From positions 1 through 38,956 of IMG/VR virus record IMGVR_UViG_3300045988_057840: 38,956 nucleotides of DNA, one strand, 5' to 3'. Of this stretch, positions 15,991-35,801 are shown in pieces (position 1 is the stretch's first letter; the number at the start of each line of letters is the position of its first letter). The notes beneath the pieces are model-generated. The model saw only the letters and a list, made by a program, of their open reading frames with translations, was not told where the DNA came from and made no database searches. This DNA is from a virus. The translations under genes and the position numbers were made by a program.

Positions 15991-16011
15991 GTAGAAACAG
16001 AGGTGCATACA

Positions 16012-20083: not shown

Positions 20084-20087
20084 TTGA

Positions 20088-20104
20088 TTACGGTTAAACC
20101 GTTA
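20088..20104. promoter_or_regulatory. Third operator-like palindrome TTACGG-TTAAA-CCGTTA
   Basis: Perfect 13-bp palindrome ACGGTTAAACCGT at 20090..20102. Same half-site and 5-nt spacer as the two sites in the switch region. Confidence 0.5.
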
Positions 20105-20117
20105 CGGGGGATAGGTT

Positions 20118-20366: not shown

Positions 20367-20368
20367 TT

Positions 20369-20563: not shown

Positions 20564-20565
20564 AC

Positions 20566-20748
20566 ATGGTGAAAGTAGTTTATGCAGTGCGTATTCTCGC
20601 TGCAATTCTAGTAGTTGGAACAGTTGGATCGGTTGATATAGACCGTATCGATTTGTGGACAGGTATTTGCCAAGGTCTGCTAGGTATTACTCTTTGGATG
20701 CTAGCAGGCTACTGGCTAGAAGAAGTAAAAGAATATGGCAAAAGATAA
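20566..20748 (+). CDS. Small membrane protein (60 aa, two TM segments)
   Basis: The ATG at 20566 follows AGGAGAG. Hydrophobic segments VRILAAILVVGTVGSV and GLLGITLWMLAGYWL. Confidence 0.5.
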   Translation: MVKVVYAVRILAAILVVGTVGSVDIDRIDLWTGICQGLLGITLWMLAGYWLEEVKEYGKR

Positions 20749-20902
20749 ATTTTGCAAGGTGTGCAATAAAAAGATTAAAAGTCCTTACACAAACTGGTCT
20801 TACTTAACCGGTGAGCCACGTATCGTGTGCGATACCTGCAAAGAAATACATCCAATTGTTAATAGATACCGGATGCAGACCAAGATAACTCTTAAACACT
20901 GA
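20735..20902 (+). CDS. Small zinc-ribbon protein (55 aa); not in the supplied ORF track
   Basis: Hand translation: MAKDKFCKVCNKKIKSPYTNWSYLTGEPRIVCDTCKEIHPIVNRYRMQTKITLKH, with CxxC...CxxC. It fills the gap before 20916. Confidence 0.45.
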   Translation: MAKDKFCKVCNKKIKSPYTNWSYLTGEPRIVCDTCKEIHPIVNRYRMQTKITLKH

Positions 20903-20915
20903 TAAGGAGATTGAT

Positions 20916-21425
20916 ATGCCAAAAGTAAACATTACAAAATCAGCAGTTCGTGCCTTTGTCCGAAGCGAATATTTGAAAAAGCATGAGCCTTTGAGAAATG
21001 CACGAGTCGAGGCTTTGAGAAGTGCGATAGAGGCGAGTCCCCTATTTATAGATTTTAAAAACATAATGGCCTCTGCAGAATCGGTTGCAAGTGCGTTAGA
21101 AAAAGCTGGATACGGCTCAGGATTTAGGCAAAATCTTGTCTCTTGTGATAAGATGCTAAATCGTACAATACACAATTTATACACAGCACATATGAGTGAA
21201 CCAAAAGATGAAATCCGTAAATTATATGCGATTGCGAAACCGTATGATGAAAAGCTTGAAGCGATAGAGAAAGCTTACCAATTAGCGCGTAGTACCATCG
21301 ATAGAGCTCCGGGAGGTAAAGCAGCTGCTGATATTTTAAAGATGTCAGGACTCGACTTTTATGCGTGGCAAACTACTGACAGCGAAGCAGCATTAGATTT
21401 AAGCGCATTGAAGGGAAGTGATTAA
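20916..21425 (+). CDS. Hypothetical early protein (169 aa)
   Basis: AAGGAG SD. Same strand as its neighbours, so preferred over the antisense ORF 20804..21184. Confidence 0.6.
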   Translation: MPKVNITKSAVRAFVRSEYLKKHEPLRNARVEALRSAIEASPLFIDFKNIMASAESVASALEKAGYGSGFRQNLVSCDKMLNRTIHNLYTAHMSEPKDEIRKLYAIAKPYDEKLEAIEKAYQLARSTIDRAPGGKAAADILKMSGLDFYAWQTTDSEAALDLSALKGSD

Positions 21426-22005
21426 ATTGCGAGACTGTACAACGTGCCCTGATAAAGACTACTGCATTCCTGATGAATGCCTGGGCGCAAAAAAAATGCC
21501 CTCACGCACGGCAATGCATAAAGGGCACTTAGAAAAATATCCATTTAAAGTATATCACATCGTTAAACCGAAAGGAAACAGAACAATGATCGAGTTAAAA
21601 ATTACAGTAGATAAAGCAGTTGAATTAGAACAAGAAGTGAAAGACCTATATCAATCTATCGTAGGCGCACCTGTTAAAGAAGTCGAAAACTGGACAACAA
21701 ATGACGTTAAGCCAGCTAAGAAGGAAGCTCCAAAAGTAGAAGCTCCTGCTCCTAAAGTTGAACCGGTTAAAGAAGCGCCAGCACCTAAGGAAGAACCTGT
21801 AGAAGGAGCTCCAGTTAAAGCAGAAGTACCTAGCCTTGAAGCAACTCGTGCTGCTGTAAAAGATTACATCGACAAAGCAGCAGACAAGACACAAGCAAAG
21901 ACAGACTTTAAGGCGTTGTTGGATGAAATTGGCGCAGAAAAGGTGACATCTGCTACCGATGAACAACGTATCAAAATCATGGAATGGGTGAATAGCCGTG
22001 GCTAA
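21418..22005 (+). CDS. Hypothetical protein with a Pro/Lys/Glu-rich linker
   Basis: ORF open from a GTG at 21418. An internal ATG at 21586 (MIELK...) is an equally plausible start. PAKKEAPKVEAPAPKVEPVKEAPAPKEEPVEGAP. Confidence 0.5.
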   Translation: MIKLRDCTTCPDKDYCIPDECLGAKKMPSRTAMHKGHLEKYPFKVYHIVKPKGNRTMIELKITVDKAVELEQEVKDLYQSIVGAPVKEVENWTTNDVKPAKKEAPKVEAPAPKVEPVKEAPAPKEEPVEGAPVKAEVPSLEATRAAVKDYIDKAADKTQAKTDFKALLDEIGAEKVTSATDEQRIKIMEWVNSRG

Positions 22006-23140
22006 TAAACACGCCTTACTAGGTGCTTCAAGCAGTGCGAGGTGGCTAGTATGTACTCCTTCAGCAAGATTAGAGGCGATGTTCCCTGATGAACAATCTC
22101 CGTATGCTGCGGAGGGTACTGTTGCGCATAATCTAGCGGAAGCAATTCTCCGGCATAAGCTAGAAGGCAAGAAAGCCCCTAAGCTAGACGACTACTCTAC
22201 TGAAATGGTAGAAGCGGTTAATCGATATGTCGACATTTGCGAAGAGAAGGTAAACGAAGCACGTGCTCGCTCCGCTGATGCGGAAGCCATGATAGAAGCA
22301 CGGCTCGACTTCTCTCGTTGGGTACCCGAAGGCTTCGGTACCGGCGATATGGTTATCGTAGCCGACGGCATCCTAGAAGTGATTGACCTAAAGTATGGCA
22401 AAGGTGTTCCTGTTAGCGCCGTCGAAAACACACAAATGCGACTCTATGCATTAGGTGCCTATGATGTCAACGAGTACTTGTACGACATCAAAACAGTTCG
22501 CATGACAATCGTTCAACCAAGACTTGATAGTGTGTCTACCGACGAAATGTCACTTGAAGAACTTCTTGATTGGGGCGAAGATATCAAACCTATCGCACAA
22601 CGTGCCTGGGAAGGTATCGGCGAATGTACGCCTTGCGATTACTGTAACTTCTGTAAAGCACGGCACACCTGCCGAGCATTAGCAGATACTTGCCTTGATA
22701 CATTCTATAAGAATGGAGGCAAGCTCAATCAATTACTTACTGATAGCGAAGTATCTGACATCCTAGGGATGAAAGATTTAATCACGAAATGGATTAAAGG
22801 CGTGTATGATTTCGCTTACGAGAAAGCCTTATCCGGCGAGAAACAATGGCCAGGCTTCAAATTGGTAGAGGGTACGTCAAGACGTACTATCACGGATCCA
22901 GAAGCTGCAGCTAAAACATTACTCGATAACGGCTACAAAGAAGAGGACATCTTCAAGCCTCGAGAACTCGAAGGTATCACTAATCTGCAAAAGGTTCTTG
23001 GTAAAAAAGGCGTTGCCGAATACCTAGAAGCATATATCGACAAGCCTGAAGGCAAGCCTACGTTAGTCCCTGAGTCGGATAAACGCCCAGCAATCAATAC
23101 CGTAGAATCTATGGCTAATGAATTTACAGACGAGGAGTAA
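21998..23140 (+). CDS. DUF2800-family PD-(D/E)XK (Cas4-like) nuclease
   Basis: HALLGASSSARWLVCTPS at the N-terminus. GDMVIV...EVIDLKYGKG is the D..D-x-K motif. C-terminal Cys cluster CTPCDYCNFCKARHTC. Confidence 0.8.
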   Translation: MANKHALLGASSSARWLVCTPSARLEAMFPDEQSPYAAEGTVAHNLAEAILRHKLEGKKAPKLDDYSTEMVEAVNRYVDICEEKVNEARARSADAEAMIEARLDFSRWVPEGFGTGDMVIVADGILEVIDLKYGKGVPVSAVENTQMRLYALGAYDVNEYLYDIKTVRMTIVQPRLDSVSTDEMSLEELLDWGEDIKPIAQRAWEGIGECTPCDYCNFCKARHTCRALADTCLDTFYKNGGKLNQLLTDSEVSDILGMKDLITKWIKGVYDFAYEKALSGEKQWPGFKLVEGTSRRTITDPEAAAKTLLDNGYKEEDIFKPRELEGITNLQKVLGKKGVAEYLEAYIDKPEGKPTLVPESDKRPAINTVESMANEFTDEE

Positions 23141-23141
23141 C

Positions 23142-23456
23142 ATGCGCGTCGTGACTGTAAAAGCAATTGCCAAAGAGCTTCATGAGCGAGGGCACTACCT
23201 CGATGAGCTCTACCAAATTACTATTGCATATGCTACTAGCTTGCACACTCGCTACTGCGTAGTTGATGCAAGGTGCGATGCAATAGAACTTCGATATCAA
23301 ACAGAAGAAGAGTTGGGCCCCTATGAGTATCCCTGGTTAGAGGACGATGAGTGGAACCGGCTTGATGATGAACGTTCTGATATCGAAGATGAATTAGAAG
23401 AATTATTTAATACAGTAATAGGGTTCGAACATGACTGTAACCCATTTAAGAAATAA
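23142..23456 (+). CDS. Hypothetical acidic protein (104 aa)
   Basis: The ATG at 23142 follows GAGGAG. Position within the replication module. Confidence 0.5.
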   Translation: MRVVTVKAIAKELHERGHYLDELYQITIAYATSLHTRYCVVDARCDAIELRYQTEEELGPYEYPWLEDDEWNRLDDERSDIEDELEELFNTVIGFEHDCNPFKK

Positions 23457-23469
23457 GGAGACCGTAACA

Positions 23470-24030
23470 ATGGCTAAATTAACAACTGGTATCGTAAGAC
23501 TTTCCTATGCAAACATCGCTCAACCTCGTAAAAACGACGACGGCAAAGCAAAATACAGCTCTCAAATCATTATCGATAAAACAGATAAGAAAACAATCAA
23601 AGCATTTGAACGTGCGATTGAAGAACTTAAGGCTGATCCAAAAGCAGTAGCTAAGGTAGAAGGTAAAGCAGCATACCTTAAATTGAACTTACGTGATGGT
23701 GATACAGATGAAGCAGTAGCTGACCAACCTGAAACATACGCAGGCAAGTTCTTCATCAATGCGAATAGCGATAAACAACCTATCGTATTCACTCGTGACA
23801 AAATCAAGATGGACCAATTCGACATCGAAGAAGAAATTTACTCCGGTGTATACGCGCAGGTCGCATTATCCGTTTTCGCTTATAACTTCAATGGTAAAAA
23901 AGGTGTAGGCTTTGGCCTAAATGGTGTTCGTAAAGTTAAAGATGGTGACCGCCTCGGTGGCGTTCACGTATCTGCTAATGACTTCGGCGACGACGATTTA
24001 GGCGACCTAGACGATGACGAATTCATCTAA
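23470..24030 (+). CDS. DUF2815-family ssDNA-binding-like protein
   Basis: MAKLTTGIVRLSYANIAQPRKN is a typical DUF2815 N-terminus. Acidic SSB-like tail DDDLGDLDDDEFI. AAGGAG SD. Confidence 0.75.
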   Translation: MAKLTTGIVRLSYANIAQPRKNDDGKAKYSSQIIIDKTDKKTIKAFERAIEELKADPKAVAKVEGKAAYLKLNLRDGDTDEAVADQPETYAGKFFINANSDKQPIVFTRDKIKMDQFDIEEEIYSGVYAQVALSVFAYNFNGKKGVGFGLNGVRKVKDGDRLGGVHVSANDFGDDDLGDLDDDEFI

Positions 24031-24040
24031 GGAGGAAAAT

Positions 24041-25975
24041 ATGGAGCTCAGTATTGATGTGGAAACGTATTCTGACTGCCCTATTAAATATGGAGCACAG
24101 CGATACGTTGATGATACAACATTTGAAATACTGCTCTTTGCCTACAGCTTCGATGACGAACCGGTCGAAGCAATTGATATGACAAAGGATCCACTACCCG
24201 AAAGGGTGGTGGACGCTTTGTATAACAAGGAAATTACAAAGACCGCCTTTAACGCAGCATTCGAAATGCTTTGTCTTAAAAAGTATTACCCTGATGCGGA
24301 TTACACGAACTGGGAATGTACCTCTGTACTAGCTTTGTACTGTAGTTTACCTGCAAGCCTTGATAATGTGTCTAAGGCTTTACGATTAGGTGAAGCCAAA
24401 GACGCAAGAGGTAAACGACTTATCCAGTTCTTCTCAGTACCAAGAAAACCAACTAAGACAAATCCTAAGACACGAAATATGCCAGAGGATGCGCCTGAGA
24501 AATGGGCGGAATACATTGAGTACAATCGTCAGGACGTGGTAGTAGAAAAGGCAATTCGTAAGCGCTTACTTTCGCTGAAACCACCTGCTATCGAGCACGA
24601 GTACTGGTTACTCGACCAAGATATCAACTGGCGAGGCGTGAAAGTAGATATGGAACTCGTCGATGCAGCGCTTGCTTGTAACGACGAAATCGTGGAAGAG
24701 GCTACCGAGTCATCTAAACTATTAACCGGATTAGAAAATCCGAACAGTACCATGCAACTTAAAGAGTGGCTGACGGCAAGACTAGGATATGATCTAGAAA
24801 CAATGAGAAAAGACGATGTATCAAACCTCTTGGCACAGGATATCCCCTCTGATGTTCGCAAGGTACTGCAAAATAGACAGGTACTCGGTAACTCCTCCAT
24901 CAAAAAATACTTGGCCATGAAAAACGCTGTATGTTCAGATGGTCGCATCCACGGCATGCTTCAGTTTTATGGGGCTATGCGAAGTGGTCGCTGGGCGGGA
25001 CGTGTAGTACAGCTACAGAACCTCCCTCGTAACTACCTAGAAGATTTAGACACAGCTCGGGAAGTTCTTAAAAGTAGAGATGTAGAAATGCTAGACCTAC
25101 TATACGGAAACCCTGGCGACGTGATTAAGCAACTTATCCGTACCGCTCTAGTAGCAGAGGATGGACACCGCTTCATTGTGGCCGACTTTAGCGCTATTGA
25201 AGCCCGTGTTATCGCCTGGCTTGCTCACGAGCAATGGCGCCAAGATGTATTCGCTCAAGGCGGAGACATCTATTGTGCTTCTGCGTCCAGCATGTTCCAC
25301 GTACCAGTTGAGAAGCACGGTGTTAATGGGCACCTACGACAAAAAGGAAAGGTAGCTGAATTAGCGCTAGGGTATGGCGGCGGTGTAGGAGCTATGAAAG
25401 CGATGGATACTAAAGGAGAAATTCCTGAAAAGGAGCTACCAGGTATCATCGAAGCATGGCGACAAGCTAGTCCACGAATTACGAGATTTTGGAAAGATGC
25501 AGACAGCGCAGCAAAGCAAGTCGTGAGAACAGGAGAACCAGTACGAATCAGACAAGGCAATATTAAATTCTTTAAATCGAAAGGCTTCCTGTTCATTGAG
25601 TTACCATCCGGTCGAAGACTTGCCTACGCAAGACCTAGACTCGGACTTAACCGGTTCGGTAGTGAATCGATTGAGTATGATGGTATGGATCAGGTTAAGA
25701 ATACATGGGGCAGGGTTGAAACCTACGGTGGAAAGCTCGTCGAAAACATTGTACAAGCCGTAGCAAGAGATTGCTTAGCAGCAGCGATGTTAAGACTAGC
25801 AAAAGCTGGTTACAAAATTGTAGCCCATATCCACGACGAAGTGGTTATCGAAGCGCCAATAGGCGAAGGTAGTTTAGAAGAAGTTATAGATATTATGTGT
25901 GAACCTGAACCCTGGAATGAAGGGCTCATATTAAACGCAGCAGGGTTTGAGAACCCTTACTACATGAAGGATTAG
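24041..25975 (+). CDS. Family A DNA polymerase (phage type, with 3'-5' exonuclease motif)
   Basis: Exo I motif IDVETYS. Motif A is DFSAIEARV, motif B is RQKGKVAELALGYGGG and motif C is HIHDEVV. Confidence 0.9.
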   Translation: MELSIDVETYSDCPIKYGAQRYVDDTTFEILLFAYSFDDEPVEAIDMTKDPLPERVVDALYNKEITKTAFNAAFEMLCLKKYYPDADYTNWECTSVLALYCSLPASLDNVSKALRLGEAKDARGKRLIQFFSVPRKPTKTNPKTRNMPEDAPEKWAEYIEYNRQDVVVEKAIRKRLLSLKPPAIEHEYWLLDQDINWRGVKVDMELVDAALACNDEIVEEATESSKLLTGLENPNSTMQLKEWLTARLGYDLETMRKDDVSNLLAQDIPSDVRKVLQNRQVLGNSSIKKYLAMKNAVCSDGRIHGMLQFYGAMRSGRWAGRVVQLQNLPRNYLEDLDTAREVLKSRDVEMLDLLYGNPGDVIKQLIRTALVAEDGHRFIVADFSAIEARVIAWLAHEQWRQDVFAQGGDIYCASASSMFHVPVEKHGVNGHLRQKGKVAELALGYGGGVGAMKAMDTKGEIPEKELPGIIEAWRQASPRITRFWKDADSAAKQVVRTGEPVRIRQGNIKFFKSKGFLFIELPSGRRLAYARPRLGLNRFGSESIEYDGMDQVKNTWGRVETYGGKLVENIVQAVARDCLAAAMLRLAKAGYKIVAHIHDEVVIEAPIGEGSLEEVIDIMCEPEPWNEGLILNAAGFENPYYMKD

Positions 25976-25988
25976 GAGGACAATTCTT

Positions 25989-26360
25989 ATGAAACTCTCA
26001 AAACAACAAATTCAACAACAACGCGAAGCAATCGACGCTTTATATGAACTCGTAAAAGAAGCGCCAGCGAGTGAGCGTAAAGACTCCGCTATGGCATACT
26101 GTGAAGGCTGTATTGCTGCTTGTGATTTAGGTCTTAAGGTATTAAACGGCAAGAAAGCAGAGGCTCCTAAGACTGAGGAAACTCCAAAGGTAGAAGAAAC
26201 TACAGTTACAGAAGAGCCAAAAGCTGAAGAAAAGCCAAAACGTAAACGTACTACTAAGAAGAAAGAAGAACCAGTAGAAGAAACCTTGCCGGTGGTTGAT
26301 GAAGCTCCTGTAGTTGATGAAGCACCTGCAGAAGAAGACGATTTAGACGATTTGTTATAA
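25989..26360 (+). CDS. Hypothetical protein with a PEK-rich low-complexity region and acidic tail
   Basis: GGAGGA SD. The protein ends in EEDDLDDLL. Confidence 0.55.
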   Translation: MKLSKQQIQQQREAIDALYELVKEAPASERKDSAMAYCEGCIAACDLGLKVLNGKKAEAPKTEETPKVEETTVTEEPKAEEKPKRKRTTKKKEEPVEETLPVVDEAPVVDEAPAEEDDLDDLL

Positions 26361-26376
26361 GAAAGGATAGCGCCTT

Positions 26377-28050
26377 ATGAAGGTCTTATTCAATCTACAA
26401 GTACAACAGCTGTACGACCTAGTGCGGCGCAAACAAGTAACACCTAATACGCCTGCAAGCCATTACCATGTGGCTTGCGGACACTCCTTTAGCAATTTAT
26501 GGCCTATGAAGTCCGGCGGATTTGGACTTGTGACAATTCCTGAAGCAGATTCATTCTACTGCCCGATGTGCGGTGAGCTAATTAAGGCAAGCGGTTATAC
26601 TGCCGAAGTTGGATACCGAGGTACGGTTCCTATTTCTTTAGACTTATCGATAATCGATAGAGGCAATGTCTTGGATGTGCAGTTTGAGTACGACACTGTA
26701 TATGCTGATGGCGATACAGGAATGATCTACAAAGGATATAAGTCACATGTGGTTGATGTTCTCCGGTTTGACTTCAAACGTAGAACGTCCTCTATCGTAC
26801 TTAAGAAACGCTCACGCAGCAATGTCGTCGAAAAAGCGACAGTCTCCCCTTCTGGATTTAGAAATGGTCTTTTACCTTTACTGTGGATTGTGGCTACTCC
26901 AAACTGCAGACTGCATAACTACCAGGCTGAGCTGAAACGCTTTGCTAAGGTATTAAAGGATGTATTCTTTGAAAAGCTATCCAAGGTAGTGGGCTATAAA
27001 GTCAAATCCATTCGGCAGGGGATACAAGTTACTAACAAGTACGGAGCTTTAGATAACCTTCTTCATAATCTTGTATGGAAATTAGAAGCCCCTGATGCTC
27101 CTGCTATCAATGAAGACCTTAAACGAGACTATGATGACTTCTATAACAGAGCTTTCCCGTACGAGAAATTCGGCATGAGCGATGTATTAGCATTAACGGC
27201 CAATAGCAAGCCTTTTGTAAAAGCGCTGATTGAAGTACATAACTTGCCTGACACTCGCTGGTCTCGTAGGTTACTACACGATAGACCTTTCTTTTACGCG
27301 AAAGCGATTAAAGTAGTGTCTAAGTTATTTAGAAACAGAGACTACCAAAAGGCATTGTTAGATGTTATTAAAAGTAACTCTGATGATACAGGTTATATTC
27401 AATCGTGGCCAATATGGAGAAACGATCGTGACTTAGATATCATTAGTAAATTTGTACATATCTTAGGGCACCAATATGGTGAACGCCAGGCGTTCTTATT
27501 CATTCGGAATGCGCCGTCTTATCAAGATGTTCGAGATACAGCCAGTATGTATTATGAATTATCAAGAACTAGACGTAAAGAAGTTTGGGCGAGCCGGATT
27601 CAAGTACGAAGCTTACACGACACCATCACGAGAATGCAAAAGTTTGACAAAGTAGAAGACGAAATCGTACAGCAACGAAAAGCACATCGTGTACTAGCCG
27701 ATATGGTTAACGGCTACCGATTCACGGCGATTGGTTCTACTCACGGCATCATTGATATGGGTATTCAGCTTAACAACTGCGTAAGCTCTTATATCAAGAA
27801 AGTAAAAGCTGAAACCTGTGCTATCGTAGGTGTCTATAAATGTAACGAGCCTGTAGCGTGTATCGAAGTTAGCCCTGTAGATAACTCGGAAAACTTCATT
27901 GAGATACACCAGGCTAAACTAAAAAACAATCGTGGCGTATACGAAAACCACGATATTAATGGGGCAGTTAGTCAGTGGGTAACCTCTCACGGCTTACGTG
28001 TTCCTAGGTATGTAGGGGACATCCACTTTGCGAAGGGAGGAGCGATGTAA
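26377..28050 (+). CDS. Large hypothetical protein (557 aa): N-terminal zinc-ribbon-like Cys/His, C-terminal PcfJ-like segment
   Basis: HVACGHSF...FYCPMCGE at the N-terminus. C-terminal LNNCVSSYIKKVKAETCAIVGVYKCNEPVACIEV...IHQAKLKNNRG is reminiscent of the PcfJ-like domain pattern. Confidence 0.6.
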   Translation: MKVLFNLQVQQLYDLVRRKQVTPNTPASHYHVACGHSFSNLWPMKSGGFGLVTIPEADSFYCPMCGELIKASGYTAEVGYRGTVPISLDLSIIDRGNVLDVQFEYDTVYADGDTGMIYKGYKSHVVDVLRFDFKRRTSSIVLKKRSRSNVVEKATVSPSGFRNGLLPLLWIVATPNCRLHNYQAELKRFAKVLKDVFFEKLSKVVGYKVKSIRQGIQVTNKYGALDNLLHNLVWKLEAPDAPAINEDLKRDYDDFYNRAFPYEKFGMSDVLALTANSKPFVKALIEVHNLPDTRWSRRLLHDRPFFYAKAIKVVSKLFRNRDYQKALLDVIKSNSDDTGYIQSWPIWRNDRDLDIISKFVHILGHQYGERQAFLFIRNAPSYQDVRDTASMYYELSRTRRKEVWASRIQVRSLHDTITRMQKFDKVEDEIVQQRKAHRVLADMVNGYRFTAIGSTHGIIDMGIQLNNCVSSYIKKVKAETCAIVGVYKCNEPVACIEVSPVDNSENFIEIHQAKLKNNRGVYENHDINGAVSQWVTSHGLRVPRYVGDIHFAKGGAM

Positions 28051-28051
28051 T

Positions 28052-30472
28052 ATGGATACAAATATCATCATAGCTACGGGCAGAAGTCGCTCCGCCCGTA
28101 GCTGGAAGTCTCAGAAAATGACTTGGAGTGCTTTGGCCAATAAATTGGCAGAGCCAACTGTAACAAATGAAACAGCTGCTGAATACGCCAAGATGTCTAA
28201 AGCTGATCAAGGCCAAAAGAAAGACGTCGGCGGTTTTGTAGGTGGCTATATTCCTAAAAATGGTAGACGAGTAAGAGGCTCTGTTAAAGAGCGGTACTTG
28301 ATTACCCTTGATGCGGATAATCCTAGTGAGGACTTTCTATTAGACCTCGACATGGAATTAGGCGGAATGGAGTATGTACTTTACAGTACACACAGTCACA
28401 CGGATGCTAATCCACGATATCGCGTAATCATACCTGTCGATAGAGCGATGAAGCCAGATGAGTACCAGGCAGTCTCAAGACGGATTGCAGATAATATCGG
28501 GATTGAGTCTTTTGACCCATCCACACACCAGGCTGAACGGCTTATGTATTGGCCAAGTCATCCTAAAGATGTTGCCTACGTGTATCAACGAGGCGAAGGC
28601 AACCTAGTATCTGTTGATCAGTATCTAAGTACATATCGTGATTGGCGGGATACGAGTCTTTGGCCAACATCTGAAAAGGAATCACAAATCCGACTTGATG
28701 CTGCCAAGAAGCAAGGCAACCCGTTAGAGAAAAAGGGTTTACTCGGTGCCTTTTGTAGGTGCTACAGTATCACGGAAGCGATAGAAAAGTTCCTTCCTGG
28801 AGTGTATGAGCCGACACAAGTTGAGGACCGATACACGTATACAGAAGGTAGCTCAGTAGGTGGTTTAGTTATCTACGATAACGATACTTTCGCTTACTCC
28901 AACCACGCAACTGACCCTATCAGTGGTAAACTCGTTAATGCTTTTGACCTGGTCCGCATCCACTTATTCGGTGCCAAAGATGAGGGCGAAGACCCTGCGA
29001 CGGCAGTTACTAAACTGCCGAGCTACAAAGCTATGATAGACTTCGTCAACGAAGATGGCGCAGCACCAATCCTGCTCGATAAAGAACGCATGGCGGATAT
29101 GGAGTTTGAGGATATCACAGATGAAGAAGAGGACTTTTTGTCAAAGCTAAAGCGTGATAAAAACGGTACTCCCGAGTCTGATGTGTTCAACTGTTTGGTG
29201 GTACTTAAACATGACCCTGCATTAAAAGGTAAAATCCGTCTTGATGAATTCGCGCATCGGTTAGTCGTGATTGACGATCTTCCGTGGCGAGGTAAGGATG
29301 AAACCCAATACTGGACGGACACCGACGATGCGTGCCTACGTAACTACTTCGCCACAAAATACCTTATCAAGGGTAAGGGGATTATCGACGATGCCTTGCA
29401 GGAAGTAACGCAAGATAATAAATTCCATCCGGTACGCCAGTACTTAACTGGTTTAACTTGGGACGGTGAATGTAGAGTCGATACTCTATTTATCGATTAC
29501 ATCGGAGCGGAGGATACCGAATACATCCGAGCGGTTACACGTAAATGGATGTGCGGTGCCATCGCACGAGTAATGGAACCTGGCGTTAAGTTCGATACGG
29601 CGATTGTGTTATATGGCTCTCAAGGGCTTGGTAAATCATTAATCCTAGAGCGGTTAGGTCGTAAATGGTTTAACAACTCACTCGTTGATATCAAAACCAA
29701 AGACGCCTTAGAACAAATCCAGGGCTCATGGATCAATGAACTCGCTGAACTTGCACCTACCTATAAAAACGATAACGAAATCGTTAAGGCCTTTATCAGC
29801 CGTACCTCTGACAGGTTCCGTTCACCTTACGGTAGACGGACAGAAGAGTATCCTCGCCAGTGTGTATTTGCCGGTTCTACTAACAATCTTATGTTCTTAA
29901 AAGACCGAACCGGTAACCGCCGATTCTGGCCAATTACTGGAGATAAGGTACGCAAGACTAAGAACGCTTGGGAGTTGGCAAATGAAGAAATTGATCAATT
30001 ATGGGCGGAAGCATTCACGTATTGGGCGGAAGGTGAACCTCTCGTATTAGAGGGTGAACTCGAAGAAGAAGCCCTTAGAATTCAATTATCGCACACTGAA
30101 GGCGGTGAACTCGTAGGACTCATTGAGGAATACCTAGAAATGGAACTACCTGAAGATTGGGAGTCTAAAGACATCTACGATCGTAGGGAGTATATCCGGA
30201 ATTATGGCGATGACGACTATTGTGGTTCAGTGCAGCGGGAGCGGGTTTGTGCCCTTGAGATATGGTGCGAAGTAATGGAGGGTGACAGGAAGAACCTGCA
30301 GAACGCAAAAGCAAGAGAAATCATCGACATTCTGCAATCTATTAAAGGGTGGAGCCCTTATACAAAAGGTACAGGTAAAGCCCGGTTCGGTAAGCTTTAC
30401 GGTCCACAGAGAGCGTTCGTCAGAGATGGAACTGGACTTCTTGACATCTATAAAAAGAATCACAAGAAGTAG
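28052..30472 (+). CDS. VirE-family primase/helicase (N-terminal primase-like domain plus P-loop NTPase)
   Basis: Walker A is YGSQGLGKS. DRTGNRRFWPI is the typical VirE motif. The N-terminal YSTHSH...RYRVIIP segment is primase-like. Confidence 0.85.
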   Translation: MDTNIIIATGRSRSARSWKSQKMTWSALANKLAEPTVTNETAAEYAKMSKADQGQKKDVGGFVGGYIPKNGRRVRGSVKERYLITLDADNPSEDFLLDLDMELGGMEYVLYSTHSHTDANPRYRVIIPVDRAMKPDEYQAVSRRIADNIGIESFDPSTHQAERLMYWPSHPKDVAYVYQRGEGNLVSVDQYLSTYRDWRDTSLWPTSEKESQIRLDAAKKQGNPLEKKGLLGAFCRCYSITEAIEKFLPGVYEPTQVEDRYTYTEGSSVGGLVIYDNDTFAYSNHATDPISGKLVNAFDLVRIHLFGAKDEGEDPATAVTKLPSYKAMIDFVNEDGAAPILLDKERMADMEFEDITDEEEDFLSKLKRDKNGTPESDVFNCLVVLKHDPALKGKIRLDEFAHRLVVIDDLPWRGKDETQYWTDTDDACLRNYFATKYLIKGKGIIDDALQEVTQDNKFHPVRQYLTGLTWDGECRVDTLFIDYIGAEDTEYIRAVTRKWMCGAIARVMEPGVKFDTAIVLYGSQGLGKSLILERLGRKWFNNSLVDIKTKDALEQIQGSWINELAELAPTYKNDNEIVKAFISRTSDRFRSPYGRRTEEYPRQCVFAGSTNNLMFLKDRTGNRRFWPITGDKVRKTKNAWELANEEIDQLWAEAFTYWAEGEPLVLEGELEEEALRIQLSHTEGGELVGLIEEYLEMELPEDWESKDIYDRREYIRNYGDDDYCGSVQRERVCALEIWCEVMEGDRKNLQNAKAREIIDILQSIKGWSPYTKGTGKARFGKLYGPQRAFVRDGTGLLDIYKKNHKK

Positions 30473-30852
30473 GTGTGTCCAATTATTTGAGGTGTGTCCA
30501 ATTATTTAATAGGTACGAATGTTCGCAAAAATAATTATTCAAGCCTATACATAGATGAATTTTGATATAAGCTAATAATTGGACACACCAAACACGCATG
30601 GACACACTAATCGGACACGGGCAAAAAACAGATAACTACTAATCTGAATAGAGTTATGTATCTAGTGTGTCCAATTATTTATATAAAAATAAAAAAATAA
30701 ATATATGAATAATCGTATGTATAGGTATACACGTAAAAAACCCGTATACGCGTATATATATATGTTGGGAAAAAATTGGGCACTTCGGACACACTACCCA
30801 CACAAACCCAGTAACCATATAGGTTCGTAGGCGTGTCCGAAGGTGTGTCCGA
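30472..30852. repeat. Iteron cluster plus AT-rich tract: candidate replication origin
   Basis: GGTGTGTCCAATTATTT at 30472 and 30491. 16/17 copies at 30665 (direct) and 30574..30589 (inverted). Core GTGTGTCC/GGACACAC also at 30600, 30787 and 30844. Degenerate GTGTCC at 30613 and 30833. AT tract at 30681..30715. Confidence 0.6.
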
Positions 30853-30870
30853 GCATTAAATGAGAACGAG

Positions 30871-31212
30871 GTGAGAACGATAGAAAAAGATATCGAACGT
30901 TGGTTAGGAAATCAACTCAAAAAACTGGGGTGTATATATATGAAATTCGTATCACCTGGAAATGACGGCGTACCCGATCGGATTGTTATACTTCCCGGAG
31001 GTAGTGTTATCTTCGTCGAGTTAAAGTCCACACAAGGTAAGTTAATGGCCAATCAACGAGTACAGATTTCAAGGCTGCGTAAACAGGGCGCTTTAGTATT
31101 TGTCTTAACAGGGAAGCTGGACGCCAAGTTATTTGTAGACGATATAGAAAGGGTAATTCATGGACTTTCATCCACACGAGTACCAAGAGATTGCTATTCA
31201 GCGGATAATTGA
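30871..31212 (+). CDS. VRR-NUC domain nuclease
   Basis: GVPDRIVILPGGSVIFVELKSTQGKL contains the D...E-x-K motif. GTG start with a weak SD. Confidence 0.8.
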   Translation: MRTIEKDIERWLGNQLKKLGCIYMKFVSPGNDGVPDRIVILPGGSVIFVELKSTQGKLMANQRVQISRLRKQGALVFVLTGKLDAKLFVDDIERVIHGLSSTRVPRDCYSADN

Positions 31213-32533
31213 CCATTCGCATTATGGGCTCTTATTAGATATGGGCTTAGGCAAGACAATCTCCACGTTAATCGCAATAGAGAAACTTATGTATGATAGC
31301 TTTACTATCAAAAAAGTGTTACTTATTGCACCTAAGAAGGTAGCAGAGTCTACCTGGGCACAAGAAACAGAAAAGTGGAGTGCCACAAGATGTTTAACCG
31401 TGGCCAAGGTGTTAGGTTCAGAGAAAGAACGTATACACGCACTCGATAGTGAGGCTGATATCTATGTGATGAATCGTGAAAACGTGCAATGGTTATATGA
31501 TTACTATTTCGAAAAACCGAAAAAGAAATTCCCTTTTGACATGTTAGTGATCGATGAAAGTTCTTCATTTAAGAATCCACAGGCTAAACGGTTTAAGGCT
31601 ATGCGTAAAATGAGACCTCTCTTTAAGCGTATTGTTATTCTAACAGGCACGCCAGCGCCAAATACCTTAATGGATATTTGGGCACAGATGTATTTACTAG
31701 ATGGCGGGGACCGATTAGGTAAAACGCTTACCGAGTTTAGATGTCGCTACTTTACGCCGGACAAGACAAACGGGCACGTCGTGTATAGCTACCGATTACT
31801 ACCAGGTGGCGATAAGGCGATATTTGGTAAAATCCAAGACGTTTGTATGAGCTTAAAGGCTAAGGACTATCTCAAACTACCTGAGCGCATTGAAAACGTA
31901 ATTACTGTAGAAATGAGTCCTAAAGAATGGGCACTGTACAAAGAAATGGAACGAGAACATGTGCTAAGTATCGTAGATGATGACGATGTGAGCGCCCTTA
32001 ATGCAGCAGCACTCGCCGGTAAATTGTTACAACTGGCAAATGGATCCATTTATAACGATGAGGGTGAAATCGTAGTCGTCCATAACGAGAAGATTGAACG
32101 ATTGAAAGAATTGGTAGAAACGAATGAAGGAAAACCGATGTTAGTGTTCTATAACTTCAAACATGACCTTCAATCGATTAAAGAAGCATTCCCGAAAGCC
32201 GTTGAGTTAAAGACCGATGATGATGTAGCCGAGTGGAACAAAGGCAAGATTCAAATGTTACTGGCACATCCCGCATCAGCAGGGTACGGTTTAAACCTAC
32301 AAGCCGGCGGTAATATCATCGTATGGTACGGCCTGACATGGAGTCTTGAACAATATCAACAAGCTAATGCGAGACTACACAGGCAAGGGCAAACACAGCC
32401 TGTGATTATTCACCATCTAGTAACAAAAGGCACGATGGACGAGCAGGTTATGAAAGCATTAGAACGCAAAGAAGCAGGGCAAGATGCCCTCTTAGAAGCT
32501 ATTAAATATCGTAAAGAATTGTATAAGGAGTAG
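31160..32533 (+). CDS. SNF2-family DEAD/H helicase
   Basis: Motif I is DMGLGKT, motif II is LVIDESSSF, motif III is LTGTP and motif VI is QANARLHRQGQ. Confidence 0.9.
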   Translation: MDFHPHEYQEIAIQRIIDHSHYGLLLDMGLGKTISTLIAIEKLMYDSFTIKKVLLIAPKKVAESTWAQETEKWSATRCLTVAKVLGSEKERIHALDSEADIYVMNRENVQWLYDYYFEKPKKKFPFDMLVIDESSSFKNPQAKRFKAMRKMRPLFKRIVILTGTPAPNTLMDIWAQMYLLDGGDRLGKTLTEFRCRYFTPDKTNGHVVYSYRLLPGGDKAIFGKIQDVCMSLKAKDYLKLPERIENVITVEMSPKEWALYKEMEREHVLSIVDDDDVSALNAAALAGKLLQLANGSIYNDEGEIVVVHNEKIERLKELVETNEGKPMLVFYNFKHDLQSIKEAFPKAVELKTDDDVAEWNKGKIQMLLAHPASAGYGLNLQAGGNIIVWYGLTWSLEQYQQANARLHRQGQTQPVIIHHLVTKGTMDEQVMKALERKEAGQDALLEAIKYRKELYKE

Positions 32534-32537
32534 AGAT

Positions 32538-33053
32538 ATGCAAAAGAAATGCAGACGATGCGGAGACACATTTACAGTAAGAACACACGAGGACTACTGC
32601 CCTGCGTGTGAAAAAATTATGACACCTCCTGGTGGAGGAACTAGTAAAGAGTTAACTTGTGAAGGATGCGGCACAACCTTTATTCACAAAAAGGAAAAGG
32701 CGCAAGGCCGTTGGCCTAAATATTGCCCAGAGTGTCTTCCTAAATACTCTAAGGTGCCTAAGAAAAAGGAAGAGACAGTGCAAGCTATTGCAGAAAAGAT
32801 AGTGAAAGCTATCGAGGAGCCGGAAGTTAAGGTGACGCCTAAGAAAGAAGATGTCATCAATCATCCTTCACACTACACACGCGGTAATATTGAGGTTATC
32901 GATTTTATCGAGGATCAACAGCTTCCATATCATCTAGGTAATGTTATCAAGTACATCGCACGAGCAGGGCATAAGGGCGATAAACTTGAAGACCTAAAAA
33001 AAGCGCGGTGGTATTTGGACCGGTACATCAATGAGGTAATGCAGCATGAGTGA
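32538..33053 (+). CDS. DUF3310-domain protein with N-terminal zinc ribbons
   Basis: CRRCG...CPAC and CEGCG...CPEC at the N-terminus. C-terminal INHPSHYTRGNIEVIDFI...YHLGNVIKYIARAGHKG...DLKKARWYL is the DUF3310 signature. Confidence 0.75.
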   Translation: MQKKCRRCGDTFTVRTHEDYCPACEKIMTPPGGGTSKELTCEGCGTTFIHKKEKAQGRWPKYCPECLPKYSKVPKKKEETVQAIAEKIVKAIEEPEVKVTPKKEDVINHPSHYTRGNIEVIDFIEDQQLPYHLGNVIKYIARAGHKGDKLEDLKKARWYLDRYINEVMQHE

Positions 33054-33474
33054 CTATAAAGAAAAGGCGACAGCATATTTACAGGATATCAAGATGATAG
33101 CCATACGTATTCAATCCCTACGTCAGGATATTCGCAAACTGCAGTATGATATCATCACCTTATCGGCGATTGATTATTCCAAAGACCGAGTATCCGGGGG
33201 CGGTACTCCGGCAGGGCTTGAGGGGGATGTGGCTAGACTTGTTGATACGGTAGATGCCAAGAAACGGGAGATAGCAAAGCTTATTGCTAAAAGGGAAGAT
33301 GCAAGGGCTTTAATTGAAAAGATAGAATGTATACCAGGGCGTATTATATTAGCGCAAGAGTACATTAACGGGGCGTTTCCTAAGAAAGTACAAGCGATGA
33401 TATATTACGAAAAGAGCAGTTACTTCAATTTAAAAAATAAAGCATTGAACGAATTAGGGGAGCTACTTTCATAG
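33046..33474 (+). CDS. DUF1492 / RinA-ArpU-like late-gene transcriptional regulator (sigma region 4-like)
   Basis: The pattern YLQDIK..I..L...I..L......AIDYSKDRVSGG.....E..V..LVD......EI..L......A..LI..I......IL...YING matches the DUF1492 layout. Last gene before the packaging module. Confidence 0.55.
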   Translation: MSDYKEKATAYLQDIKMIAIRIQSLRQDIRKLQYDIITLSAIDYSKDRVSGGGTPAGLEGDVARLVDTVDAKKREIAKLIAKREDARALIEKIECIPGRIILAQEYINGAFPKKVQAMIYYEKSSYFNLKNKALNELGELLS

Positions 33475-33538
33475 TGGAGCACTTTGGACTGTTTTGGAGT
33501 ACTTTGGACTTAAATGAACCGACTTGACATAGTATAAT
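33475..33538 (+). promoter_or_regulatory. Candidate late promoter: two 16-bp direct repeats upstream of a TATAAT box
   Basis: TGGAGCACTTTGGACT (33475..33490) and TGGAGTACTTTGGACT (33495..33510) have a 20-bp period. TATAAT lies at 33533..33538. Confidence 0.5.
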
Positions 33539-33598
33539 GTAGTTGTGAAAGGTGTCTTTAGTCATCTAACACAAATCCTCTCTTATAAACAACTCGGC

Positions 33599-33633
33599 AA
33601 AAAGCACGGTGATGACGACCGTGCTTTTTGTTG
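33599..33633 (+). terminator. Intrinsic terminator inside the leader, about 60-95 nt downstream of the TATAAT box
   Basis: AAAAGCACGGT-gatgacg-ACCGTGCTTTTT, followed by gttg. Confidence 0.7.
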
Positions 33634-33798
33634 TATGTAGCATTGTAAATATAGGGGCCTCTATTTATGATGTAGGCGATCGCGTAAGCTAAGGAGAGGG
33701 AATATGTAAAAATGAAATTTACTGCACAATGAAACCAGGGCGAGCCGAATATGTCCACATTTTTAAAGCTTATACATTATGAGCTTGCCCTGTATCGT

Positions 33799-33888
33799 TG
33801 TACGCTGACATCTGATGACTAGACTATAAGTCCTCCAATAACTATATAGCCTAACAACAACCAACTAGTCATCGGATTTGAGCGTACA
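33799..33888 (+). other. Long imperfect hairpin (24-bp arms, 42-nt loop) in the non-coding leader
   Basis: tgtacgctgacatctgatgactag (33799..33822) pairs with ctagtcatcggatttgagcgtaca (33865..33888) with two mismatches and one G-U pair. Confidence 0.5.
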
Positions 33889-33910
33889 AATGTATTAAAG
33901 GTGAGAAGGT

Positions 33911-34105
33911 ATGAGCACAGAAGTCAAATGCATTAAACGTAAATGCCTTAATAACAAAAACGGCGTTTGCGCAGCAAAACTAATTGAATATGATGGACTG
34001 TGTCAAACGTATATCACACATGACCAAGCACATAAAAGTAATTGTGGATTATGCACTCGTTCTCACGGCCGATTTAAGAGAAACAGCCGTGATGTATTAA
34101 GATAG
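33911..34105 (+). CDS. Small Cys-rich protein (64 aa), DUF1540-like pattern
   Basis: VKCIKRKCLNNKNGVCAAKLIEYDG...C...C..C. GGTGAGAAGG SD. Confidence 0.5.
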   Translation: MSTEVKCIKRKCLNNKNGVCAAKLIEYDGLCQTYITHDQAHKSNCGLCTRSHGRFKRNSRDVLR

Positions 34106-34120: not shown

Positions 34121-34564
34121 GTGGCCGAGTTAAAGAACAAGAAACACGAAAAGTTTTGTAACGAATATATCAAGGATATGAATGCGACACAGGCCGCTAT
34201 TAGAGCCGGCTATTCCGAAAAAACTGCAGGTGCGCAAGCATCTAAATTGCTTAAAATAGTTAACATCAAAACAAGGGTTTCCGAGCTTCGTGACGCTTAT
34301 TTAGACGAAAACATTATGACTGCTAAACAAGTCGAGTATGAGTTAACAAGAATTGCCCTGGGGCTCTCAAATGAAAAACACGTCGTTATCGAAGGTACAG
34401 GTGACGGATACTCCGAAGCCCGCATTATCGATAAGCCACCTGACGAGAAGTCAAGACTGAAAGCACTGGAGCTAATGGCTAAACGCCATAGAATACTCAG
34501 CGGTGATACAACTATCGATATTAAGCCTGTAATCATCGTAGGTGGTGACGATATTGCAGACTAA
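34121..34564 (+). CDS. terS: Terminase small subunit (Terminase_2 / P27 family)
   Basis: KHEKFCNEYIKDMNATQAAIRAGYSEKTAGAQASKLL is the family signature. GTG start 7 nt after AGGAGG. Confidence 0.9.
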   Translation: MAELKNKKHEKFCNEYIKDMNATQAAIRAGYSEKTAGAQASKLLKIVNIKTRVSELRDAYLDENIMTAKQVEYELTRIALGLSNEKHVVIEGTGDGYSEARIIDKPPDEKSRLKALELMAKRHRILSGDTTIDIKPVIIVGGDDIAD

Positions 34565-35801
34565 CAGAGTGTACTTGCCTGATATCGTAGGTAAGGGATA
34601 CGGTGCTTTTTGGCGTTTCAAAGGGCGCTATAAAGTAGTCAAGGGTAGTCGTGCCAGTAAGAAGTCCTCTACGCAGTCTCTAAAAGTCATTATGGAGATA
34701 ATGGAGAACCCTTGTATAAACTGGCTAGTCGTTCGTAAGACAGAACGGACTTTGCGTGACAGTTGTTTCGCGCAGCTTAAATGGGCTATGCGCCAGTTGA
34801 GAGTGGAGCGTTATTTTAAATGTTCCGTATCGCCCCTTGAAATAACGTACATTCCGACCGGCCAGAAAATCTTATTTCGTGGTCTCGATGATCCTTTAAA
34901 GGTAACGTCCATTACTGTTGAAGTGGGGGCGCTATGTAGGCTATGGATTGAAGAAGCTTATGAGATTATGAGTGAAGATGCATTCAACAGACTGGATGAA
35001 TCTATTCGTGGTCAGTTACCCAAAGGGATGTATCACCAGGTAGTATTAACCTTTAACCCGTGGTCTGATAGGCACTGGTTAAAGAAACGCTTCTTTGATG
35101 AACCTAGCAAAAACGTGCTAGCCATGACTACGAATTACCTGTGTAACGAGTTCTTGAGTGACTCTGACTTAGTACTGTTCGAGGAGATGAAAAAGAACCC
35201 TAAGCGGTACCAAGTAGCAGGGCTCGGCAACTGGGGCGTTATTGAGGGACTGGTTTACGAAAACTGGAAAGAACAAGAATTTAGTATTGATGAAATACGC
35301 AAGTTACCAGAGGCCAAAGCTATATTCGGCTTGGATTTTGGATATACTACGGACCCGACAGCTCTCTTCTGTGGTGTCGTTGATTCTGCAGAACGACGAC
35401 TGTATGTATTCGATGAGCTCTACGAACTCGCTCTTACTAATAGCGCAATAGCTGAACGAGTAAAACGTTTGGGATATGCAAAAGAGACTATTATTGCTGA
35501 TTGTGCCGAGCCTAAAAGCATAGCCGAGCTGAGAGAATTTGGATTGACTCGAACTCAGGCATCTAAAAAAGGTGCAGATAGTATTCTGAATGGTGTACAG
35601 CGCATCCAGGATTATGAAATTATAGTGCACCCGAGATGTGTTAACTTTCTTACAGAAATCAGCCAATACCAATGGGAGAAAGATAGATTTGGTAAGTATA
35701 CAGGCAAGCCTGAAGATGAAAATAACCATTTAATGGATGCTATGAGGTATGCATTTGAGAAATTTGCTGTGGTTAAAACCGGCAAAGTTGATATTTATTA
35801 G
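34542..35801 (+). CDS. terL: Terminase large subunit (PBSX / Terminase_3 family)
   Basis: YGAFWRFKGRYKVVKGSRASKKS is a Walker A-like region. WIEEA is Walker B. The C-terminal nuclease motif is NHLMDAMRY. Exact start uncertain (GTG at 34542). Confidence 0.9.
   Translation: MVTILQTNRVYLPDIVGKGYGAFWRFKGRYKVVKGSRASKKSSTQSLKVIMEIMENPCINWLVVRKTERTLRDSCFAQLKWAMRQLRVERYFKCSVSPLEITYIPTGQKILFRGLDDPLKVTSITVEVGALCRLWIEEAYEIMSEDAFNRLDESIRGQLPKGMYHQVVLTFNPWSDRHWLKKRFFDEPSKNVLAMTTNYLCNEFLSDSDLVLFEEMKKNPKRYQVAGLGNWGVIEGLVYENWKEQEFSIDEIRKLPEAKAIFGLDFGYTTDPTALFCGVVDSAERRLYVFDELYELALTNSAIAERVKRLGYAKETIIADCAEPKSIAELREFGLTRTQASKKGADSILNGVQRIQDYEIIVHPRCVNFLTEISQYQWEKDRFGKYTGKPEDENNHLMDAMRYAFEKFAVVKTGKVDIY

Follow-up and report, generated by a model that had tools for sequence, protein, structure and literature searches.

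A phased-repeat promoter candidate, a conserved terminator and a structured leader ahead of the late genes of a Veillonella phage

How are the late genes of a temperate phage transcribed if an intrinsic terminator stands in their own leader? The question is raised by a 38,956-nucleotide viral sequence (IMG/VR record IMGVR_UViG_3300045988_057840, the whole of which is called the window here), in which a gap of 436 bp (window positions 33475-33910) lies between a regulator gene and a small Cys-rich open reading frame (ORF). The window represents a Veillonella temperate phage, and the gap most likely the control region for its late (packaging, structure and lysis) genes. The host was called from genome matches, and an integrase and a cI-like repressor are encoded in the window (Pfam). 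Comparison of the gap with its relatives points to a late promoter directly after the regulator gene, a terminator within the first 100 nt of the predicted transcript and a leader RNA whose helices are conserved on one strand. All features described below lie on the + strand unless stated otherwise.

Repeats and predicted promoter at the end of the regulator gene

The gene preceding the gap (33046-33474; stop codon TAG at 33472-33474) encodes a late transcriptional regulator of the Ltr superfamily, DUF1492/LtrB type. The gene closes the early/middle operon and stands just upstream of the packaging genes, with terS 650 bp downstream. The product of 142 amino acids is basic (isoelectric point 9.08), scores 30.1 bits against Pfam DUF1492 (cut-off 21.5) and matches PHROG family 36 (phrog_36, transcriptional regulator, 1e-14); its C terminus gives a weak ArpU match. 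Among the late transcriptional regulators that form the Ltr superfamily, DUF1492 makes up family III (LtrB) (PMC3753634). The AlphaFold2 model of the protein (predicted local distance difference test score, pLDDT, of 88) consists of a long helical hairpin and a C-terminal three-helix helix-turn-helix domain. Comparison of model and sequence with the PDB gave no informative match, the best fold match being a coiled coil (E = 0.075).

The region is shared at 92-98% identity by 78 close IMG/VR loci. Isolate genomes represented by IMG/VR records 643886074 and 2882406111 carry copies as prophages. An additional scan of viral contigs recovered only close relatives, and blastn of the region against 50,697 phage records returned short terS matches only, with no close GenBank isolate. 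More diverged relatives were found by protein searches and via the small ORF. Their regulators are 26-55% identical, and they share the same order of regulator, non-coding gap and Cys-rich ORF, the last being homologous throughout and 63-64 amino acids long. The packaging modules that follow differ: terS/terL, ParB_N-DUF4417 with terL, or a GpA-type terminase. These relatives were clustered into 22 leader types, with gap lengths from 132 to 1268 bp.

The gap itself does not appear to encode a protein. As the preliminary description of this DNA had stated, it holds no credible ORF, and no conserved ORF was found in close variants or diverged relatives. A minus-strand ORF of 66 amino acids is disrupted in 21 of 73 close variants, and the small ORFs within the gap are conserved among near-identical variants only. 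Alignments of the gap to diverged relatives contain many indels of lengths that are not multiples of three. A tRNA scan of the window found none.

Beginning 1 nt after the regulator TAG are two 16-bp direct repeats, TGGAGCACTTTGGACT (33475-33490) and TGGAGTACTTTGGACT (33495-33510), both of which had been noticed earlier. With up to three mismatches allowed, the 16-mer pattern has five matches in the window, against 0.39 expected, and it is exact only at these two sites. On closer division the array resolves into four TGGA cores, at 33475, 33485, 33495 and 33505, with an exact period of 10 bp. This four-direct-repeat array (33472-33511; cores 33475-33508) is the putative binding array of the regulator and would lie at about -73 to -34 from the predicted start. 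In related systems, repeats at the ltr stop codon are the Ltr recognition sites; they are necessary for activation and sufficient for Ltr specificity (PMC3753634).

The boxes stand in fixed phase with a perfect TATAAT at 33533-33538, which was already on record as having no properly spaced -35; no usable -35 was found. A perfect TTGACA (33524-33529) is mis-spaced, only 3 bp from the TATAAT, and a weak -35-like TTAAAT (33510-33515) stands at 17-bp spacing. The core promoter is thus delimited to 33510-33538 and comprises TTAAAT, the mis-spaced TTGACA, a conserved ATAG just before the -10 and the consensus TATAAT. The 73 close variants hardly differ at positions 33500-33555, whereas 33891-33897 are variable.

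The same geometry is found in diverged relatives. In 21 of the 22 leader types, three to six direct repeats with a 10-bp period stand at a constant distance from a -10-like hexamer (TATAAT, TAGAAT, TATTAT or TACTAT), with the repeat units starting in most types at -60, -50, -40 and -30 from that hexamer. The repeats themselves differ between types (TTGTCC, CTTTGG, ATGTCA, TGCCAA, ATTGCA, TCGGAA, CCGAC). The hexamer is found anywhere from 17 nt before to 58 nt after the regulator stop codon, and in diverged relatives a conserved GTRRRAGKT follows it. Among the relatives, the repeats stand 130 to 800 bp from the first gene but at a constant distance from the -10.

Because phased boxes are combined with a consensus -10 that has no usable -35, the promoter is read as activator-dependent. 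That the region is an activator-dependent late promoter, as first suggested from its layout, is well supported as a prediction: a DUF1492/Ltr regulator lies upstream, the repeats begin at its stop codon and the geometry is kept across leader types. It would belong to a known kind of system, in which the boxes and the TATAAT form the late promoter and the predicted start lies near 33545.

Terminators and folded RNA in the late leader

The predicted late transcript soon meets a strong intrinsic terminator, T1 (33595-33638). The terminator recorded in the preliminary description proved to have a perfect 13-bp stem (arms 33598-33610 and 33618-33630, 100% complementary), a 7-nt loop and the tail UUUUUGUUGU, whose U-tract reaches about 33634; its folding energy is -18.9 kcal/mol. 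T1 thus lies about 55-90 nt into the late leader, its end being about 90 nt from the predicted start. Coming after an early operon of about 13 kb, it is the first strong terminator on the + strand; a scan of the + strand over 19800-33500 found two weak hairpins only (24190-24213 and 27481-27495).

T1 is also a conserved feature of the relatives' leaders. In the 73 close variants, 26 variant cells of the alignment keep the T1 pairing and none breaks it. None of the 22 leader types lacks a canonical intrinsic terminator in the stretch from the -10 to the small ORF, and most types carry two. At the position of T1, the relatives carry seven different but perfectly complementary stems (GCACGGT, GCACGC, GCGCAC, AGCACGC, GGCGCCAT, ATGACGTC and GGGGAAC). 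Most types other than that of the window have, some 30 nt ahead of the ORF, a second and highly conserved terminator, GAGGTATATCCACGGCGATATATCTC followed by U6. This second terminator, AATGAGGTATATCCACGGCGATATATCTCATTTTTTG (for example in locus L087, positions 5098-5135), is absent from the window type, which retains the downstream TGTATTAAAGG only.

Since the promoter abuts the 3' end of the regulator gene, and in relatives overlaps it, the terminator of the early operon can only lie past the late start. With the terminator downstream of the late start, late transcripts must traverse T1. Most likely, therefore, late transcription begins near 33545 and has to cross the terminator at 33598-33634. 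Further strong terminator-like hairpins were seen on the + strand inside the late operon, at 4172-4191 between structural genes and at 15955-15981 ahead of 16003-16401; they are consistent with a need for processive read-through or with control of stoichiometry.

No alternative hairpin competing with T1 was found: in truncated folds, the 5' half of T1 is unpaired in four of seven leader types. Because no structure competes with T1, read-through is not expected to be riboswitch-like, and a riboswitch-type attenuator was rejected, there being neither a mutually exclusive antiterminator fold nor a known RNA family. The Rfam search recommended earlier, run over the whole window at gathering thresholds and over the region at E ≤ 10, gave no credible match (best E = 0.086); among relatives, Rfam found tRNAs only, in other phages. 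The proposed switch in which an octamer would pair in competition with the long hairpin did not hold either. Both octamers are present (TAGTCATC at 33559-33566 and GATGACTA at 33814-33821), but the competition is not conserved: the pairing is broken in the close variant L079, absent in diverged relatives and at about chance level.

The leader as a whole folds more stably than shuffled controls, with z-scores of -5.4 for 33544-33640 and -5.3 for 33544-33915. Two hairpins, P1 and P2a, can be added to those listed before. P1 (33544-33573) would form the 5' end of the late transcript and is found in the single-sequence fold, in the consensus fold and by covariation. It has eight pairs in the RNAalifold consensus, two of them with compensatory change, and among close variants 14 variant cells keep its pairing and two break it. 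In minimal leaders the stem covaries as well (ATTGGT/ACCAAT versus GTTGG/CCAAC).

Between P1 and T1 lies a G-poor, unpaired spacer with a CU-rich box, TCCTCTCTTATAAAC (33576-33590); 8 of 12 leader types have such a box at +31 to +36. The box is complementary to a Shine-Dalgarno (SD)-like AAGGAGAGG at 33691-33699, and this pairing is present in the single-sequence fold; among close variants seven variant cells keep it and six break it. In minimal leaders the box is complementary to the true ribosome-binding site. Diverged relatives retain a complementary box pair in other registers (CTAAGGAAA/TTTCCTTAG and GAGTGA/TCACTC, from an alignment read by eye). The SD-like partner, with the ATG-TAA start-stop pair at 33704-33709, occupies 33691-33709; it stands mid-leader, 4 nt ahead of this start-stop mini-ORF.

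P2a (33640-33673), predicted from the single-sequence fold, follows T1 directly, starting about 5 nt past the U-tract. In close variants 54 variant cells keep its pairing and seven break it. A promoter-like TTGTAA-N17-TATGAT at 33643-33671 was considered and rejected, as it lies inside P2a and its hexamers vary in a pair-preserving way. The interval between T1 and P2a is therefore too short for a promoter. Given selection at the RNA level on the structures after T1 and no promoter between them and T1, the transcripts that carry these structures would have come through T1.

Two longer hairpins lie further downstream. P3 (33736-33792; -18.0 kcal/mol) corresponds to the 10-bp stem reported before (33736-33745 with 33783-33792), made up of nine Watson-Crick pairs and one G.U pair, and closes a loop with the conserved motifs CGAATAT and GCTTATACATTAT. 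P4 (33798-33889; -32.7 kcal/mol) is the long hairpin, now extended to an inverted repeat of 25 nt with 88% complementarity (33798-33822 and 33865-33889); its loop carries CCTCCAA (33832-33838). Both were analyzed in an alignment of 22 sequences, composed of the window type and diverged "group A" relatives. In P3, pairing is kept in 98.6% of cells, and 4 of the 10 pairs are changed on both sides; in P4, 99% of cells are paired, with both sides changed in 11 of 23 pairs. When each 3' partner was slid by one to three columns as a control, only 30-43% of cells were paired. The real helices together contain 15 doubly changed pairs. The RNAalifold consensus of the alignment has 49 pairs, 18 of them compensatory. 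Summed over P1, T1, P2a, P3 and P4, 104 variant cells in the close cluster keep pairing and 12 break it.

Many helix positions alternate between G.U and A-U or G-C, which works on the + strand only. The covariation in homologous phages asked about in the preliminary description is thus present: both long hairpins covary and are conserved, strand-specific RNA structures. That the leader is a conserved structured non-coding RNA of the + strand is strongly supported by these comparisons. Other elements of the fold fared less well. A long-range pairing of 33717-33730 with 33898-33910 in the minimum-free-energy fold is unsupported (91 broken cells), and close variants give no support to apical sub-helices of P3 and P4.

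In the window, P4 is the only copy of a hairpin module of which relatives have 0-4 tandem copies; the module motifs occur nowhere else in the window. The base of the module is conserved (TTGAAWAC... / ...GKWTTGAGYRTRYAA), with a conserved G.G mismatch. Tandem modules with the conserved bases ATTGAAAACT.../...GTTTTGAGTRAT were seen in the leaders of loci L170 (2550-2900, for example), L194, L186 and L298. The P3 loop at 33763-33784 (TTAAAGCTTATACATTATGAGC) shares 73% identity with 33895-33916 (TTAAAGGTGAGAAGGTATGAGC), the region of translation initiation for the small ORF, and the variant L043 has an additional, duplicated copy of the P3 loop segment.

At the other extreme, minimal leaders of 132-143 bp consist of the -10, P1, the CU box, a C/A-rich spacer, a terminator ending about 30 nt before the start codon, and a ribosome-binding site; they are devoid of the long hairpins. 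In a V. parvula relative (locus L183, 1730-2997), about 800 bp are inserted in the leader after a T2-like terminator; the insert appears to hold minus-strand genes, with ribosome-binding-site-like and terminator signals on the opposite strand.

Passage of the terminator

How, then, would late polymerase get past T1? The preliminary description likened the layout to the lambda PR'-tR'/Q logic, and anti-termination of this kind is reasonable from the layout and, by analogy, plausible. In such a scheme the activator would multimerise on the TGGA boxes (about -73 to -34) and recruit host RNA polymerase to the -35-less promoter, with transcription starting near 33545. T1 would stop polymerase coming from the early operon and so shield the packaging and lysis genes from early read-through. 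Late polymerase, made resistant to termination at or just after initiation, would cross T1 to reach the Cys-rich ORF, terS and terL. The agent of resistance could be the activator itself (Q-like or GafZ-like) or a factor loaded on P1 and the CU box; with no such factor, a short RNA of roughly 90 nt would be made. P2a, P3 and P4 would act after read-through, and their roles can be guessed at as processing or stability (the P4 arms are of a size suited to RNase III) or translational control. To draw such functions from the size of the P4 arms and the complementarity of CU box and SD-like sequence is speculation. The combination of a phased-box promoter with an early-modified polymerase that reads through T1 is held here as a tentative reading, a little short of an even chance.

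Active read-through is favored because most relatives have two serial terminators, because reporters in related systems block foreign read-through, and because of the terminators within the late operon. In those reporters, read-through from the upstream Pcad promoter was blocked without Ltr, and expression was obtained with Ltr (PMC3152322, PMC3753634).

Several known systems resemble parts of this scheme. The lambda PR'-qut-tR'/Q system (6S RNA) is alike in layout, with a late promoter, an intrinsic terminator that gives a short RNA and late genes reached by read-through only; like Q, the regulator here would be a DNA-binding protein acting at the promoter. In contrast to Q, it does not belong to the Q family, its putative sites lie upstream of -34 rather than between -35 and -10, and no conserved sigma-dependent pause element was seen in the leader. 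In the Caulobacter gene transfer agent (GTA), the activator GafY is paired with the antiterminator GafZ (PMC11150451). Promoter activation and terminator bypass are combined there as well, near the start of a phage-like structural cluster, but two proteins and IHF take part, the terminator follows the first gene, and there is no homology to the present system. HK022 put and the lambda and rrn nut sites are analogous in having a 5'-end hairpin and then a CU-rich box before the first terminator. HK022 put has two stem-loops, whereas P1 is the sole hairpin before T1 in the window and in minimal leaders, with no second put-like stem-loop; in contrast to nut, no N-like protein is present here. Lambda boxA, CGCUCUUA, differs from CTCTCTTA of this leader by one mismatch, which is within chance for single sequences (consensus from PMC2724277).

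A number of observations weigh against an active mechanism, or against a start upstream of T1. Neither in sequence nor in fold does the regulator detectably resemble Q proteins, and scans against Pfam, PHROG and NCBIfam found no Q family. On inspection of the aligned leaders, no conserved -10-like hexamer that could specify a pause was seen downstream of the start. The CU box weakly resembles boxA (GCUCUUUA or CGCUCUUA), with one to two mismatches in 9 of 12 leader types and, in eight of these, at a constant and suggestive +31 to +36, but shuffled sequences do equally well in 3-43% of trials, and for single sequences the resemblance is not statistically significant. In the literature, no paper was found that proposes anti-termination by Ltr proteins, and no such activity is reported. 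The efficiency of T1 is a prediction, and in this phage, with its one leader terminator, a strong promoter might need no more than partial passive read-through. In minimal and T2-type leaders, as in 80alpha, the stretch past the terminator contains a weak -10-like element (CAAAAT, TATAAA). For phi11 and 80alpha, published mapping puts the RinA-dependent 5' end past the terminator, 23-24 nt ahead of terS; the 80alpha mapping used a treatment that selects triphosphate ends, and Ferrer et al. assign the terminator to the early transcript (PMC3152322).

The main alternative keeps the same promoter (33533-33545) and takes T1 to be partial, so that a fixed fraction of late transcripts passes; the hairpins would merely stabilize or process the mRNA and the short RNA would be a by-product. 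The window leader indeed holds a single canonical terminator, and an A-tract upstream of T1 is able to pair with the U-tract. Such pairing may weaken termination. P1 lies at the extreme 5' end, and hairpins comparable to it are known as 5' stabilizers. Neither an antiterminator protein family nor an alternative fold was detected. The two serial terminators and long hairpins of most relatives would, however, multiply the losses of a passive process, the perfect conservation of the T1 hairpin speaks against a partial terminator, and in related systems there is essentially no read-through from foreign promoters (PMC3152322, PMC3753634). Passive attenuation is on balance somewhat unlikely.

It is also conceivable that T1 ends the early operon only and that the true late start lies downstream, activated at a distance from the repeats as published for 80alpha; the TATAAT at 33533 would then not be the late promoter or would drive a short RNA only. 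The mapped 5' ends of phi11 and 80alpha lie more than 155 bp from RinA-dependent sequences, a need that Ferrer et al. leave unexplained (PMC3152322), and -10-like elements follow the last terminator in 80alpha, phiFL2A and the minimal and T2-type leaders. This published model, with its start after the terminator, is hard to fit in the window. Covarying helices begin immediately after T1, and the only promoter-like match past it (33643-33671) varies in a pair-preserving way. A TATTAA at 33892-33897 is too near the ATG to leave a ribosome-binding site and lies partly in the variable segment 33891-33897. The distance of the repeats from the first gene, as noted above, varies several-fold in relatives, while that to the -10 does not. 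A downstream start is accordingly judged distinctly unlikely.

A third possibility is that the main product is a regulatory small RNA of about 90 nt (33545 to about 33634), consisting of P1, a CU/CA-rich single strand, the terminator hairpin and a U-tail, and that it acts in trans or in cis, for example on the SD-like AAGGAG, read-through being secondary. The unit from promoter to terminator is compact and strongly structured (the z-score of -5.4), the CU box is complementary to the SD-like sequence and in minimal leaders to a real ribosome-binding site, and relatives have an ARN-rich spacer (A, purine, any base, repeated) ahead of the terminator. Against this, no target was identified, no Rfam family matches, and the late genes need a promoter, of which no other is conserved; the idea is improbable.

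Some pac sites, such as that of SPP1, are located just upstream of terS, where the long inverted repeats of this leader also lie, but a pac site or another terminase-recognized DNA signal, an idea raised in the preliminary description, is very improbable here, since homologous leaders travel with the regulator and the Cys-rich ORF across three unrelated packaging modules, the helices keep many G.U pairs that would be A.C mismatches on the other strand, and minimal leaders do without the hairpins.

Neighboring genes and related phages

Downstream of the leader, a ribosome-binding site AAAGGTGAG and the first late gene occupy 33897-34105 (ORF 33911-34105). The gene encodes a basic, Cys-rich protein of 64 amino acids that matches PHROG family 33034 (phrog_33034, annotated as of unknown function; 3.6e-9) and no Pfam or NCBIfam family. 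C12, C20 and C31 are invariant, and C7 and C48 nearly so; the AlphaFold2 model is unusable (pLDDT 46). This ORF directly follows the leader as the first late gene in all relatives, across the three packaging modules. It is followed by terS (Terminase_2, 34121-34564) and terL (Terminase_3, 34542-35801), both assigned by Pfam. On the other side, the gene before the regulator (32538-33053) encodes N-terminal zinc-ribbon-like CxxC pairs fused to a DUF3310 domain and overlaps the regulator start by 8 nt; several relatives likewise have DUF3310 ahead of the regulator.

The locus has much in common with the late promoters of the Ltr superfamily (RinA, ArpU, LtrA, LtrB/DUF1492, LtrC; PMC3152322, PMC3753634). 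A basic regulator of about 140 amino acids is encoded just before the packaging genes, direct repeats begin at its stop codon, the intergenic region contains a terminator, and the late operon opens with genes on the terS side. Unlike the published systems, this phage has a diderm Firmicute host (Veillonella), four boxes with a strict 10-bp period, a covarying multi-helix leader RNA and a conserved gene for a 64-amino-acid Cys-rich protein before terS.

Leaders of other phages were compared. In the rinA-terS gap of 80alpha, TGGCAGT occurs twice and is followed by TTGATA-N15-TATGAT, about 75 nt, a strong terminator and, 45 nt further, terS. The near-consensus TTGATA-N15-TATGAT (locus L300, 1422-1480) directly follows the two RinA boxes and lies upstream of the terminator. 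Quiles-Puchalt et al. found that a 59-nt block after the ltr stop carries specificity onto foreign leaders (PMC3753634); in 80alpha this block includes the repeats and the TATGAT hexamer. The placement of TTGATA-N15-TATGAT within the specificity-transferring block is at odds with the published start 24 nt before terS.

In phiFL2A (ArpU), three TTGGCGG boxes are followed by TTTATA-N16-TATAGT and, about 110 nt downstream, by a terminator-like hairpin; the long leader contains a tRNA, and a second terminator-like hairpin stands just before terS. The gap of TP901-1 measures 576 bp and contains a tRNA as well as a terminator-like hairpin, the latter 10 nt ahead of the ribosome-binding site of terS. 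According to the account cited in PMC3152322, the TP901-1 activator Alt binds repeats at -76 to -32 of a promoter without a -35. As far as that account goes, the TP901-1 Alt/Plate system is similar to the present one in placing activator repeats beside a -35-less promoter, with a geometry that matches the boxes described here. The long untranslated leader and the terminator-like hairpin just before terS are also shared. Unlike the present regulator, Alt is a DUF722 protein with no detectable homology to it, and the tRNA of the TP901-1 leader has no counterpart in the window.

The leader tRNA genes of TP901-1 (L302, 1637-1707) and phiFL2A (L303, 14630-14702) are unannotated; they score 55.3 and 42.8 bits, respectively, with Rfam. 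Pneumophage IPP35 encodes a strong DUF1492 protein (168 bits), followed by a gap of 434 bp with a terminator-like hairpin at its end. A search of the IPP35 locus (L301) with ARAGORN was negative for tRNA, although two segments resembling a T-arm (TpsiC), GGTTCAAGTCC and GGTTTGATTCC, were seen in the leader by eye.

The part of this picture that involves an activator and its repeats is already established. What is new is a promoter geometry fixed beside the repeats across many diverged Veillonella phages, the constant presence of one or two intrinsic terminators on the way from that promoter to the first late gene, and a covarying, conserved leader RNA that is absent from Rfam. The layout is shared by 80alpha, phiFL2A and TP901-1, in which the terminator has so far been treated simply as the end of the early operon. 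In a broader and, at present, unlikely generalization, Ltr-superfamily activators (RinA, ArpU, DUF1492) would be promoter-loaded processive antiterminators, analogues of Q and GafZ with an unrelated fold; the leader terminators of Veillonella, staphylococcal, enterococcal and other Firmicute phages would be their barriers, and the multi-helix leader (P2a, P3, P4 and the tandem modules) would represent a new class of phage RNA. If true, the antiterminator reading would explain why RinA depends on sequences lying more than 155 bp ahead of the 5' end mapped for terS. The switch to late genes decides whether prophage DNA is packaged and the host lysed, and in Gram-positive pathogens it drives the transfer of pathogenicity islands. 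The layout thus raises the testable question of whether a widespread family of regulators may act on elongation besides initiation.

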